From assembly GCA_039030515.1 (NCBI GenBank), contig JBCCEA010000017.1, positions 1 to 64,000 of the forward strand: 64,000 bases of DNA, read 5' to 3'. The stretch's first letter is position 1; each line of letters starts with the position of its first letter. The DNA is from Myxococcota bacterium. GTDB lineage: Bacteria > Myxococcota_A > Polyangia > Polyangiales > Houyiibacteriaceae. Below, piece after piece: positions 55,660 through 64,000 of this stretch. The position numbers were made by a program, and so were the translations under genes. The notes under the pieces are model-generated. The model saw only the letters and a list, made by a program, of their open reading frames with translations. It searched no databases and was not told where the DNA came from.

Positions 55660-55721
55660 TAGAGCAAAAATCTCACTGCTCTGAGATTCGTCTTCTTTTT
55701 CGGCGCGCTTGCGTCGTGCCG

Positions 55722-55780
55722 ACTCGACCTACGAACGATGCCTGTTAGATGCGCACTCGACCTACGAACGATGCCTGTTA
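55722..55780. repeat. 33-bp period duplication containing the start codon
   Basis: ACTCGACCTACGAACGATGCCTGTTA at 55722 and 55755. Confidence 0.9.
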
Positions 55781-56580
55781 ACGAACTATTGCCACATGAT
55801 CGCGCCGCCCAGAATATTCAGCGGCGCTGGCGCGGCATCACTGCACGTGAGCGGTTCTGCAGAGCTTACGAAATCCGCTCTGTTCGAGTCGAGGATGGGC
55901 TGATCCCTCGGCACCGTAGACTGACGACACCGGCGCCGGCACCGAGATACGAGTGCCCCTTATGTTACTCTCCGGTGGGCACGCTCCAACTCCGAGCGCA
56001 TCCCCAATCGACCCCCGGACGCGCGCTTTGGGAATTTCATCCAAACCCCTCGAGGAGAGATCAAAAGTTCTCCCCACACGGGTTCCCTGGCAGTGCCCAT
56101 TTCCCTAGCAGTGTCCATGCGGTATGCAAAAAGTGTCTCGAGGCACTCATCCAAAATTGCATTTCAGGACAGACAGTTCCCTGCCCGCTTTGCAGAGTTT
56201 CTTTTAGCCCTGAACTACCACCCGAAGCACTGCTGGAACTGCTTCAAACCGAACGCTGCCGGAATCCTAGACATCAGCCTGTCCCTGGACATCATCAGCC
56301 TGTCTCTGGACACCGAAACCCTAGACATCAGTCTCTAGACCCTAGACATCAGTCTCTAGGTAGTCTCTTAGGCGAACTTACAATCGAACGTCTCGAACGA
56401 TGTGTTCCCTACGTAGAGGCCGCTGCGCAGGTGTTTTTCGCCGGATCCGTGTGTCGCCTTTGCTGGTTGGGCACCACAAAGAACAATGGCCTGATTTCAT
56501 TCTGCTTCTTGTTCTTGTGTACCTTTTTCGACGGGATATTTTTGTTAGAGCTACGTAGACGTCGGTCCGAAGTCGATTAG
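55738..56580 (+). CDS. Eukaryotic-like protein: IQ motif + RING-like zinc finger + C-terminal hydrophobic helices
   Basis: IQRRWRGITAR; CPLC...HAVCKKC...CPLCR; two hydrophobic C-terminal segments. Confidence 0.7.
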   Translation: MPVRCALDLRTMPVNELLPHDRAAQNIQRRWRGITARERFCRAYEIRSVRVEDGLIPRHRRLTTPAPAPRYECPLCYSPVGTLQLRAHPQSTPGRALWEFHPNPSRRDQKFSPHGFPGSAHFPSSVHAVCKKCLEALIQNCISGQTVPCPLCRVSFSPELPPEALLELLQTERCRNPRHQPVPGHHQPVSGHRNPRHQSLDPRHQSLGSLLGELTIERLERCVPYVEAAAQVFFAGSVCRLCWLGTTKNNGLISFCFLFLCTFFDGIFLLELRRRRSEVD

Positions 56581-60630: not shown

Positions 60631-61045
60631 AAAACGCGTCGGGGAAGCCGGACAAGGCCTGGGAGGGAAGGTCGGCGGTGCACTAGATACTTCCTACGGA
60701 ACAGGAGCGATCAGAGGCGCTAGAAATTCCGGGATAAGACAGCATGGGAGCGCAGGTAGAAGAAGACACCTTACCGGAGCTTGATCAAGCCGCGCCCAAC
60801 GCGCCAGGCGCACCGCGCGTGAAACGATGCAGAATCGAATATTTTTCGAGATTGTAACTTATCTAAGTCTGATCCATACCAAAACGGCGCTCAGAGCGAG
60901 CGCTGATAATTTGAGAAAACGAGTCGCAAAAGCGCATCCGGCCGGTATGGGCAGCCGAGAAAAGTAGTTTTTGAAAACGAATTTCATTTGCAGTTTCTCG
61001 CGACAGGAGTAGAGCCGTTCATGCCTGTGTGCGTGAGAGACTACG

Positions 61046-64000
61046 ATGCGACGTCCGCCTGCTAATCGAACCCCACCGCCAGGGTTGTCTGCGATGGATA
61101 GCAGCGAGTCCGGCAGCGGGTCTCCCGCGTCCGGCGGCGGGTCTACCTCGTCCGGCGCACGCACCGCAGCACTGCCCGCAACACCGCCGTCATCCGATAG
61201 TTCTTCTGATGGTTTGCAGCAAAAAACTTTGCCGACCCCTCCCCCGCAAGCGCCACGGCCCTGGACTCGAAGGGAACCTTCCTGGGCTCCACGAGGATGC
61301 GGAACTGATTGCAAACATTCACATTCACGCACGCCATCAGACGACTCCGTGCCCAAACCACTCGGGCTTCTTGCTGAGGAAGGTTGTGGACACAACCATG
61401 GCGGCAGCTCTGCACCCAACGTTCCGCCGGAGGAAGCAGTAGCAAAGAGTCTGAAAAGACGACTTGCGCTGCTGAAGCAGCCAGCCTCTTCGGTAGACGT
61501 CCTGTTCGCGCCATACACTCACGTTAGGCGTGTCTGGGCAGCCAACAGGAACAACAGCGGACGCAAATGGATACCTGAGCGCACCGGCGGAATGAAGCTG
61601 TTCGATGCGGAAGGCTCCCGCGCGCACGTCATCATGATGGATGGCGGCGACGAGCTTGCTCAGTTGCTCGTCAGCATGGGCTTGCACGAAAAGGCTGCGG
61701 CCGCGCTCCAGTCCTTCGTCATCTTTCCACTCTTTATCCCGCCCACCTGGGCTGGTTTGGCTGCCGCCGAGCAGGAATGGCGCGAGGTTTATGAACACGG
61801 AAAAGAAGCAGCAGAGGCCGTCAAGCAAGCTAGACAGAACCTGGGAAATAACCTCAAAAAAACCGGAGGCTGGACCCTTGGGAAGATTCTCGATCGCGCC
61901 CTCGAACTGATAGGCCGAGACGATGCCATTACTGCATGTCTCGAAGAGGTTCCGCGCAGCGCCGACCAGCAAACCGAGGAACGCAGAAACGAGGAGCGCG
62001 ATCGAGTCGTCCGCGCGTTCCATGTCGCAGCGAAGGCGATCGAAAAAGCGTATCCGTCAAAGCCGACCACAGACGCCGGGACCGACCGCGAATGGCGGCA
62101 AAAGTATCAGGAGCTCAAAACCGCATGCCGTAGCGAGCCCGAGGGCAGCTTTGCGCAAGCCATTTTGAAAGCCATCGATGAGTATGTGAACCAACTTGAT
62201 CAGGATCGTGCAAATCAACTTGCTCAGTTTCGTGCAAACCAACCTGCTCCGCGTTGTATAAGGATAGATGAATATACGGGTGAGGAACTGAAATCGCCCG
62301 TCGACCCAAGAAGGCGACGGAGACGTAATCGGGGAAGACTCGCACCATCACAACCAATCCGTACCCCTCCCACCGAGCGTGAGACGGAGTTTCAAGCTCA
62401 GCAAAGCGAACTGGACGATCTGGTGTTTGCGCTTTGCGGGCTGGAAACCGCACGAGCAAAGCAACACCTGGCACGCATCGAATACGTCAGCGCCCCAGCT
62501 GCGGCCCTTGGCACGGGATTCATGCTGTACGCGATCATAGGGCTCGACGCAGCGGCGATCTCCACCCTGGCAGGATCGAATACCGTCGCCAACGCATTCC
62601 TCAGCGGAGTGGGGTGGCTCCTCCCCATCGGGCAGTTGATGATGGCCATACACGGGCTGAGCAATGTCGCCACCGGGGTTGTGCTCGAAAAGCGACTGAA
62701 GCACGTGGCTGATTCGGCAGAGCGCCTTGCCGGTGTGTATCGACAGCATCTCGGGGACGAACTTACCAATACCCTACTGGCCACAGTCGAACGCCTAAGG
62801 CAGCTTAATCGAAGCCGTAACATCTACTCAGGAGCCGCCCTTGCGGTGGGCCAGCTCTGTATGGTGCTTGGGGGAGACTTTTTTCGAAATATCGGTCTGA
62901 ACTTCGCGCTTAGAGCGATGGCCGTCGCCATGGCGAATATCGGTGCCCTCGGCCTCCCTTCAGTCATGCTCGGAGCGGGGACCGGCCTGACATTCGCCGG
63001 AATCCTTGGACGCATTGTTTGCGATATGGAGTTTGAGAGGCGCTTCTTAGCCAATCCGAAAGAGATTCCGGTGGCTCGTCTGTGGCGCGATATTAATGAA
63101 GCTAAGCCTGAAGGAACGGTCAAGGAGCCGCTCAGCGTACGTACGGCAAAAACGATAAGCAAATACTACATGCGATCTGCAACTTGCTACGTTTGGTTGC
63201 GGATCTGGTACTGGGTGGAGCATCTTTTGCGTTTGGGCGGGGAATACCGCCTGGCCCCTCGGGCACTCGACAGCGAGTTTGGCTGGGTTCAGTACAATTC
63301 GATCAAGGAACCGGCGGATGTTCGGGCGAGAGTCCTGCGCCAGGTCCAAAAAGAACTCAAGCATGATTATCAAGAGGCGCTCCGCAAAGAAGCTGAAGAA
63401 ATCTTTGAAAACCAAACGTTCAAAAACTACTTCGACGATCTACTAGGGCGGGTACAAGAGCTCAGACGAGATCAGATCTCCGATGCGAGGTCGCCCTGGA
63501 ACTACCGAAAGGAGGTTTTTGATCCCACCAATGACTACGCCAAGAAGCTCCAAAAGCAGCGTTTGGAGCTGATTTTCGTGGCGGGTGGGCTGCAGATCGA
63601 AGCGCGAAGAGAGGACCAAGCTGAAAACGCACCCTTAGAAGATCACAAAACGTGGAGAGAAGAGAAGCTAAAATCCTGCATTGATTATGCCACAAATGCA
63701 GTTGCCTCGAGTCAGTCAATACAGCCCGAAACCCAGGGACCTCTGCAAGCACCGGCTGCGCCCGATGCACTGCAGAAGCTTCATGGGCTAGTTAAGGTGC
63801 TTGGCCTTCGGGGAGAGCTCCATCAAGAGATGGGCGGGCGCGCTTACCTCCGCAAGGCCTATGGCCGTGGCGAGGAGAATCCGCACAACGCAGTGTATGA
63901 TAGGGAGACCTACGCGGCTGGCGTGCAGATTCCATTACCTTTGTTCGACACAACCGCCTCGTTCTTGACAGGTAGTAGTCACCTCCTGCCGGAGATCCCG
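61046..64000 (+). CDS. Large orphan membrane protein, truncated by the window end (at least 985 aa)
   Basis: Manual translation from ATG 61046 (MRRPPANRTPPPG...) has no stop before 64000. Ser/Pro-rich N-terminus and about 4 hydrophobic segments at 62490-63020. Missing from the ORF track because it has no stop. Confidence 0.8.
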   Translation, partial: MRRPPANRTPPPGLSAMDSSESGSGSPASGGGSTSSGARTAALPATPPSSDSSSDGLQQKTLPTPPPQAPRPWTRREPSWAPRGCGTDCKHSHSRTPSDDSVPKPLGLLAEEGCGHNHGGSSAPNVPPEEAVAKSLKRRLALLKQPASSVDVLFAPYTHVRRVWAANRNNSGRKWIPERTGGMKLFDAEGSRAHVIMMDGGDELAQLLVSMGLHEKAAAALQSFVIFPLFIPPTWAGLAAAEQEWREVYEHGKEAAEAVKQARQNLGNNLKKTGGWTLGKILDRALELIGRDDAITACLEEVPRSADQQTEERRNEERDRVVRAFHVAAKAIEKAYPSKPTTDAGTDREWRQKYQELKTACRSEPEGSFAQAILKAIDEYVNQLDQDRANQLAQFRANQPAPRCIRIDEYTGEELKSPVDPRRRRRRNRGRLAPSQPIRTPPTERETEFQAQQSELDDLVFALCGLETARAKQHLARIEYVSAPAAALGTGFMLYAIIGLDAAAISTLAGSNTVANAFLSGVGWLLPIGQLMMAIHGLSNVATGVVLEKRLKHVADSAERLAGVYRQHLGDELTNTLLATVERLRQLNRSRNIYSGAALAVGQLCMVLGGDFFRNIGLNFALRAMAVAMANIGALGLPSVMLGAGTGLTFAGILGRIVCDMEFERRFLANPKEIPVARLWRDINEAKPEGTVKEPLSVRTAKTISKYYMRSATCYVWLRIWYWVEHLLRLGGEYRLAPRALDSEFGWVQYNSIKEPADVRARVLRQVQKELKHDYQEALRKEAEEIFENQTFKNYFDDLLGRVQELRRDQISDARSPWNYRKEVFDPTNDYAKKLQKQRLELIFVAGGLQIEARREDQAENAPLEDHKTWREEKLKSCIDYATNAVASSQSIQPETQGPLQAPAAPDALQKLHGLVKVLGLRGELHQEMGGRAYLRKAYGRGEENPHNAVYDRETYAAGVQIPLPLFDTTASFLTGSSHLLPEIP

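Follow-up and report, generated by a model that had tools for sequence, protein, structure and literature searches.

In this study, we analyzed a 64,000-nucleotide stretch of DNA (hereafter the window), which comprises bases 1-64,000 of contig C17 of the Myxococcota genome G000 (GCA_039030515.1), and focused on the five lineage-specific genes (open reading frames, ORFs, A to E) that follow the chromosomal dif site near its end. We consider it fairly probable that these genes are the local part of a large effector set that is specific to the lineage and directed at eukaryotes, which serve as host or prey. This reading gained strong support from genome-wide expansions of RING-membrane, IQ and WD40 proteins, and the same genome encodes a type VI secretion system (T6SS). 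The original prediction had proposed an arsenal of translocated effectors aimed at eukaryotic cells; the expansions and the T6SS genes speak for it, whereas translocation, a host and either a symbiotic or a predatory lifestyle are what we infer from them.

G000 consists of 4.08 Mb in 75 contigs, with a completeness of 85% and a contamination of 0.11%, which gives an estimated full size of ~4.8 Mb. It is the sole representative of its genus in the genomes searched and was compared with 87 other genomes of the family. With the exception of ORF E, a generic GNAT, none of the five genes matched an ordinary bacterial family. Nor were they conserved in relatives: the ORF A family and ORF D were each found in 0/87 family genomes, the ORF B family in 0/300 phylum genomes and ORF C in 0/250. 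Coordinates of all features are given in Table 1.

Eukaryote-like and effector-like families in the genome

First, ORF A belongs to an expanded family. The IQ motif and RING domain that had been read in this protein were both recovered by Pfam (E = 0.013 and 0.036, respectively, both under the cut-off), and a motif scan revealed 7 RING-membrane genes on 5 contigs of G000. A profile built from six of them recovered 7/7 in G000; its best matches in PDB were RNF4 (E = 3.8e-7) and RING2 (E = 1.5e-4), and the best 60 matches listed were all eukaryotic or viral RING proteins, which agrees with the RING assignment. All seven genes have a hydrophobic segment within the last 110 residues. The RING ends in C-P-x-C-R, with Pro after Cys7 in 7/7 and Arg after Cys8 in 6/7 genes, and an Arg after the last RING Cys is the "linchpin" that activates the E2. 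Seven zinc ligands were invariant in the alignment, and ligand 3 was, by eye, Cys in four genes and His in three. The canonical ligand order is C-x2-C ... C-x(1-3)-H-x(2-3)-C-x2-C ... C-x2-C (PMC11354881), whereas the spacing from ligand 3 to His in this family was 10-25 or more residues instead of 1-3, and in the RING of ORF A a long insert separates ligand 3 from ligand 4. To judge from these motifs, ORF A is probably a membrane-anchored E3-ligase mimic, and RING-membrane proteins of this kind would insert in a host membrane and recruit host E2~ubiquitin.

Second, 44 WD40 repeat matches were detected in G000, compared with at most 12 in any of the 87 relatives. F-box-like starts were seen by eye in 13 WD40-like proteins, and the WD40 proteins, some with such starts, might act as substrate adaptors. 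The IQ motif showed a similar tendency, with 5 matches in G000 versus single weak matches in 3/87 relatives; these motifs would allow host calmodulin to serve as a switch or an anchor. An IQ-like pattern was also present in 6/17 members of a 17-gene family, compared with 41/753 core genes. This family, which was found in 0/250 phylum genomes, is located on C2, C22, C35, C6, C9, C19, C29 and C7, partly in tandem arrays. Its C-terminal domain had no match in PDB, and four members, with frames of only 178-375 aa, may be fragments. The original prediction had suggested that orphans at 9.3, 16.9 and 24.4 kb of the window may belong to the same set. This appears to be right for the latter two, which fall in lineage-specific families of 4 and 17 genes, respectively, but not for the 9.3-kb gene, a singleton. 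The Cys/His/Asp motifs of the 4-gene family resemble what we take to be the pattern of papain-like effector proteases.

Gene calling yielded 639 ORFs of low codon score, of which 363 had no core paralog and at least 230 aa; 224 of these were scanned with Pfam. Many proved to be ordinary genes and many had no match, and several paralog families consisted of low-score genes throughout, notably the WD40 proteins, the 17-gene family and the 4-gene family. We compiled an effector-like set of 63 genes on 24 contigs, 59 of which were scored. A hydrophobic start was observed in 2/59 of them versus 239/1509 core genes, and Pro made up 8% of the first 50 residues versus 4% in core genes. No shared upstream motif survived multiple testing (best p 1e-5 among ~20,000 words). 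With Pro-rich starts and mostly no signal peptide, these effectors would be injected, most plausibly by the T6SS described below.

Third, ORF B had been regarded as toxin-like, and this was borne out by both sequence and predicted structure. It weakly matched the NCBIfam EspK/GogB models at E values of 4e-5 to 3e-3, aligning to their C-terminal region only (model positions ~324-470), and its predicted structure resembled EspK/GogB-like entries of the Atlas (TM 0.50-0.54). EspK and GogB are type III effectors of enterohaemorrhagic Escherichia coli and Salmonella (PMC8565820). ORF B, in contrast, is a stand-alone domain without their long N-terminal part, it scored far below the cut-offs (16-22 bits versus 872-1049), and no injectisome was found in G000. 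By this comparison it is not an EspK/GogB member but shares the C-terminal domain alone. A profile of ORF B retrieved 65 proteins, its own records included, mostly stand-alone proteins of 200-350 aa, and no longer form was found among 241 candidates. The structural model (mean pLDDT 77) had no convincing fold match in PDB (nothing in Foldseek; best VIA Z 4.9), and we make no statement on the novelty of the fold. Fully or almost fully conserved Lys, His, Glu, Arg and Trp residues suggest that the protein may be an enzyme. Within a eukaryote-directed set, ORF B, the GNAT-like ORF C, the GNAT ORF E and ORF D would act by modifying proteins or membranes of the host. G000 is rich in short tandem duplications, which also occur inside ORFs A and B (window 55724-55781, 56265-56360 and 56660-56725), and a repeated 8-residue unit occurs near the end of ORF B.

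Secretion systems and possible targets

A 14-gene cluster resembling the T6SS of the Francisella island was identified at C32:23580-42206, in which IglI, TssB, TssC and TssK exceeded the cut-offs and TssC was closest to Francisella IglB. IglI over the cut-off was found in 1/88 family and 9/401 phylum genomes, G000 included; among the other eight, five were inspected and 5/5 shared this type of T6SS locus, one of them in part. We presume that the order tssB-tssC-(235-aa gene)-tssK corresponds to iglA-B-C-D. This order, the IglB-like sheath, IglI, and the DotU and TssM-like genes are shared with the Francisella island. The C32 cluster differs in having an 846-aa gene for the spike, an unrecognised tube gene, and TssE-like and AMP-binding-like genes. 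Where subtype ii systems would have a separate short VgrG plus PdpA, the cluster thus has a single gene; the C-terminus of the 846-aa protein weakly matched Francisella VgrG, which was its only PDB hit (E = 0.18). Subtype ii systems are expected to have no ClpV in the cluster and to use ClpB in its place, and no AAA gene was present among the 14 cluster genes, which run to the contig end (no genome-wide ClpV search was made). Subtype ii of the T6SS has been described as a Francisella system (PMC5924787, PMC13577199), and the effectors that Francisella secretes include some whose genes lie elsewhere than on the island (PMC5924787).

Other machinery named in the original prediction was largely not detected in this 85%-complete genome, which does not prove its absence. 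No injectisome was found, as there were only one FHIPEP gene (FlhA), one YscJ/FliF gene (562 aa, FliF-sized) and no second export genes. VirB10 of type IV secretion systems was likewise not found (the Dot/Icm type was not searched for), and no gene matched Phage_sheath_1, which was used for extracellular contractile injection systems. A sheath-like gene on C1 was considered as a candidate for the latter and read as part of a prophage: a prophage-like element at ~186000-216000 of this contig has ~70% GC, versus 58% for the genome. Its genes include sheath, tube, tape-measure and portal-like ones, and inspection by eye pointed to portal/head-like and integrase-like genes.

If the set does consist of effectors, a T6SS route has about an even chance. 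Alternatively, the flagellar export apparatus, or the type II secretion system (T2SS) in the case of ORF C, could deliver the proteins to the same eukaryotic target, so that the route alone would differ. In their richness in Pro and their lack of signal peptides, the N-termini are similar to type III signals; the genome has a cluster of flagellar genes that includes FlhA, FlhB, FliP and FliR, together with a T2SS cluster and type IV pilus genes; and ORF C has a Sec-type signal. However, the flagellum looks ordinary, since flagellins, cap and hook-junction genes are present, and the export genes are single, although the 15% of the genome that is missing might contain an injectisome. Overall, we regard this second route as possible but doubtful.

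A second, canonical T6SS was observed in pieces (C44:26595-30863, C47:13776-16868 and the ends of contigs C20 and C23) with low codon-model scores. It includes Hcp, TssE-like, TssF, TssG, VgrG and TssM-like genes, and no second TssC was found. These canonical parts, and an orphan VgrG, fit a different target. ORF B, the 17-gene family and the GNATs might be polymorphic antibacterial or general predation toxins, released by a T6SS, vesicles or the T2SS, in which case the eukaryote-like domains would have bacterial roles. Myxobacteria are predators, two proteins with the ORF B domain were labelled RHS, and GNAT toxins of toxin-antitoxin pairs were among the fold matches of ORF C. On the other hand, no small co-oriented immunity-like gene follows ORF B or its two paralogs; among 23 toxin-like genes checked, 14 had a convergent neighbor and the co-oriented neighbors of the other 9 were a paralog, a larger gene or one 72-aa ORF. 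In addition, RINGs with E2-binding features, IQ motifs and the WD40 expansion have no evident bacterial target, and no E2 of the bacterium itself was detected in G000 by three models (UQ_con, Prok-E2_A and Prok-E2_B; a weak negative, as no positive control matched). Purely antibacterial or general toxins therefore appear an unlikely explanation.

Several observations nevertheless weigh against a eukaryote-directed set. The F-box signal was poor: Pfam detected it at E<0.001 in 1/29 N-termini, with a best score of 21.4 bits versus a cut-off of 24.3, no protein in the 88 genomes exceeded the cut-off, and matches at E<=0.05 also occurred in 17/87 relatives and 4/14 controls. Our own F-box-like profile retrieved only WD40 repeats from PDB and no F-box structure. 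For one RING paralog the best-scoring model was Prok-RING_4 (E = 0.0011), and among the relatives of ORF B are RHS C-termini, domains that often act against bacteria. We selected the effector-like set by hand, and its start codons were chosen differently from those of the core set. With regard to delivery, the TssC subfamily of the C32 cluster (306 stretches matched) also occurs in syntrophic Desulfobacterota, Methylococcaceae, planctomycetes and Corallococcus. Given how commonly syntrophs, methanotrophs and soil myxobacteria carry this subfamily, this T6SS type would not by itself indicate a eukaryotic target. No effector-like gene was found within the C32 cluster, and the 235-aa gene at the IglC/Hcp position matched nothing. 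G000 is not a reduced obligate symbiont, since ordinary biosynthetic, chemotaxis and pilus genes were seen by inspection. Finally, all the evidence is computational and comes from one 85%-complete genome.

A set directed at eukaryotes would have precedents. Expansions of ubiquitin-domain effectors mark protist-associated Chlamydiae, such as the NEX/PEX families of Parachlamydiaceae (PMC4209131), and the Legionella effector SidJ binds calmodulin via an IQ motif and is switched by it (PMC6858067). As in the Parachlamydiaceae, and also in Amoebophilus and Legionella, lineage-specific families in G000 join RING or F-box-like modules to other domains, with a predicted hijack of ubiquitination. The differences are considerable: G000 is flagellated, has a genome of ~4.8 Mb and no injectisome found, its RINGs have C-terminal membrane anchors, IQ motifs are added, the repeats are WD40 rather than mainly LRR/TPR, and F-boxes are weak and few by Pfam. 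By analogy, the G000 set would work like the chlamydial ubiquitin-hijacking and SidJ-like calmodulin-switched effectors without being a member of those families. Contact with eukaryotes is not unheard of in this phylum, given that Pajaroellobacter is an intracellular pathogen. The same follows from the antifungal activity reported for the T6SS of Myxococcus xanthus (PMC13577199).

No such arsenal has been reported for a myxobacterium in the titles and abstract openings covered here, a scope outside which lie most subscription journals and the supplements with possible domain tables of metagenome-assembled genomes. Large ubiquitin/calmodulin effector sets are already known from protist-associated Chlamydiae, Legionella and Amoebophilus. 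If our interpretation is true, a eukaryote-manipulating lifestyle would extend to a motile, metabolically ordinary marine myxobacterium, the Francisella-like T6SS would have a natural setting outside Francisella, and the membrane-anchored RINGs, the stand-alone EspK/GogB C-terminal domain and the 17-member family would be new effector families.

The dif site and the boundaries of the cluster

Table 1. Features of the window and of the adjoining part of contig C17
Feature	Position	Strand	Remarks
422-aa singleton ORF	9270-10538		weak RelA/SpoT-like nucleotidyltransferase match, E 0.028
341-aa member of 4-gene family	16859..17884	-	Cys/His/Asp motifs; no Pfam, NCBIfam, PHROG or PDB support
623-aa member of 17-gene family	24385..26256	-	long N-terminal region, shared C-terminal domain; IQ-like motif not matched in this member
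oxyR-like LysR regulator	54667..55632	+	Pfam HTH_1 and LysR_substrate; divergent neighbor of katG; conserved genes end here, ahead of the cluster
Chromosomal dif site (XerC arm, 6 bp, XerD arm)	55632..55659	-	28-mer overlapping the oxyR stop
ORF A, 280 aa	55738..56580	+	IQ-like motif 22-40, RING variant, C-terminal membrane segment 252-270; one of 7 paralogs
ORF B, 219 aa	56608..57267	-	stand-alone domain like the EspK/GogB C-terminus and some RHS C-termini; 2 paralogs on C56
ORF C, 1054 aa	57466..60630	-	start like a signal peptide; AAA-FAP; stretch free of acidic residues; helical region; putative GNAT-fold domain in the middle (~510-730)
ORF D, 1504 aa	61046..64000, ends C17:65560	+	Ser/Pro-rich start, helical body, hydrophobic hairpin 487-535, further hydrophobic segments
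ORF E, 352 aa, GNAT	C17:65728-66786 (beyond the window)	-	Pfam Acetyltransf_1, E 2.2e-5; closes the cluster

The dif site reported after oxyR is real. For its identification we used the dif consensus and the KOPS-like motif GGGNAGGG. A genome-wide scan with a loose pattern returned 2 sites and a stricter pattern this site only; the next-best copy in G000 has 9/28 mismatches, and none is located on C17. The KOPS-like motifs on C17 pointed at dif in 14/16 cases (one-sided binomial ~0.002), being on the forward strand in 7/8 cases to its left and on the reverse strand in 7/8 to its right. Although cumulative GC skew did not flip there, the 28-mer was taken as the true chromosomal dif.

Four orphan ORFs had been proposed after this site. 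Frames of 280, 219 and 1054 aa and an open-ended one were indeed found at these places, but the cluster comprises five genes, and ordinary codon scores resume at C17:66985. The genes are not strict orphans either, given that paralogs of A, B and D occur elsewhere in G000 and that databases contain relatives of B and C; ORF E has no paralog in G000. The open-ended frame, predicted as a membrane protein of at least 985 aa, is ORF D, whose full length extends beyond the window. It had no Pfam, NCBIfam or PHROG match and no relative among 8000 scored database candidates except its own record; one paralog of the same layout is located on C48. Low-complexity N-termini had been noted for both large ORFs. 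This holds for ORF D, in which Ser and Pro account for 40% of the first 60 residues versus a 95th percentile of 23% in core genes, but not for ORF C (18%). A pore-forming or inclusion-membrane role of ORF D would be a guess from its layout. A kinship between ORF D and the 24.4-kb protein was also considered, and no similarity was observed.

The position of the cluster raises the question of whether the five genes arrived together as a mobile island. IMEX and other dif-flanked islands are integrative elements that exploit Xer, and the accessory genes studied here similarly begin directly at dif, the cluster starting within 80 bp of it. The GC content at third codon positions of ORFs A and B (0.52) is below that of most neighbors. 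Moreover, contigs of metagenome runs X2 and X4 share the dif region and then carry different sequence from L001:663, just after dif; this divergence, seen in one study, gives a weak hint of strain-level turnover. In contrast to IMEX, however, there is no second dif-like site in G000, and no integrase, replication or transfer gene was found among A-E in Pfam, NCBIfam and PHROG scans. The KOPS polarity is that of the chromosome, with all four motifs inside the cluster already pointing to dif, the third-position GC content of ORF C is host-like (0.66), and the paralogs of A, B and D are situated on other contigs between housekeeping genes. On these grounds the cluster is not a typical Xer-integrated element, its link to dif is probably positional, and arrival as one Xer-integrated island is very unlikely. 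The special role that had been given to dif is unsupported because genes of the arsenal occur on at least 24 contigs; the terminus next to dif would be one of many places where such genes accumulate. In the proposed comparison of gene order with relatives, katG and oxyR were likewise adjacent in relative G007, where different genes and no dif pattern follow.

We also considered an artefact, either mis-assembled or mis-binned eukaryotic DNA or decaying ORFs at a recombination-prone terminus. The low codon-model scores of A and B and the eukaryotic nature of the nearest named relatives of ORF C are compatible with it. However, the genes have no introns and are interspersed with bacterial genes on at least 24 contigs, and contamination is minimal, as stated above. 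DNA of G000 was present in four marine metagenome runs of one study, of which one is possibly the source, and no RNA holder was listed. A single contig of run X1, which may be the source, spans all 13.5 kb of the locus, and none of the 30 bins lacks cover in runs X2 and X3; the low cover over ORF A in runs X3 and X4 was not used as evidence. Among the 40 variant rows listed (174 more are unlisted), the codons affected in ORF C were synonymous in 14 cases and non-synonymous in 12, with no stop among them, and the indels listed in C and D were of 3 bp each, save one compensating 1-bp pair. An artefact is therefore highly improbable.

ORF C and its algal relatives

The 1054-aa ORF C was present as predicted, but the statement that it has no clear Sec signal was wrong. 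Its start has a basic n-region, a hydrophobic core and an A-x-A site (a heuristic reading without SignalP, with the start codon unverified), and the core is followed by AAA-FAP and 35 or more residues without Asp/Glu. Our own presequence heuristic flagged 4/2820 genes, among which ORF C has the most hydrophobic core and the other three look like membrane proteins. The GNAT-like region was predicted with high local confidence, although the mean pLDDT of the whole model was 56.5. The top Foldseek rows listed were all GNATs (best E = 0.049, probability up to 0.99). The nearest named Atlas cluster includes PcfJ at 0.85, which we treat as a lead only.

Among 1.8 billion representatives, ORF C had 47 matches including itself, nearly all to residues ~500-720. 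Of the 46 non-self matches, 20 were looked up and most were unnamed; the named ones belong to Prymnesium, Haptolina, Chattonella, Discosporangium and Gymnodinium. The domain family (P0004, P0009, P0033, P0043, P0048, P0052 and their clusters) thus has members in haptophytes, a raphidophyte, a brown alga and a dinoflagellate, together with many unnamed bacterial-looking proteins. Several full-length algal relatives have, by eye, signal-like leaders. In a tree of the domain (47 rows, with near-duplicate and short rows left out), ORF C paired with the unnamed protein P0002 on long branches (support 95/52). With respect to the main split (99/96) it grouped with the algal side, but it was not part of a supported 24-row clade that holds 6/7 named algal rows. 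This placement does not demonstrate that ORF C was transferred from algae.

The ASAFAP motif marks the bipartite plastid presequences of algae with complex plastids (PMC6995639). Such presequences combine a signal peptide, an ASAFAP-like motif with Phe at +1 and a transit-like peptide. ORF C resembles these in its hydrophobic core, AAA-FAP and the stretch of at least 35 residues without Asp/Glu that follows; it differs in being bacterial, in having a basic stretch between core and motif, and in its place outside the supported algal clade. The algal nearest relatives and the ASAFAP-like motif together give a hint of an algal host, whereas a plain bacterial Sec signal for T2SS export would account equally well for the N-terminus. 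In a more detailed scenario, the bacterium would be associated with an alga whose complex plastid is of the red lineage, as its parasite, predator or symbiont, would inject ubiquitin/calmodulin-hijacking effectors via the Francisella-like T6SS, and would use the presequence mimic of ORF C to take an acetyltransferase into the four-membrane plastid; as a whole, this seems quite unlikely.

Two other genes may be mentioned here. A 401-aa protein with a signal-like start (window 11727-12932) matched the dimethylsulfoniopropionate (DMSP) lyase cupin (E = 2.1e-6), which would be compatible with contact with DMSP-producing algae. The gene at C22:6296-7600 matched the TLC ATP/ADP-transporter family (E = 2.8e-8), whose carriers occur in energy parasites and also in free-living bacteria.

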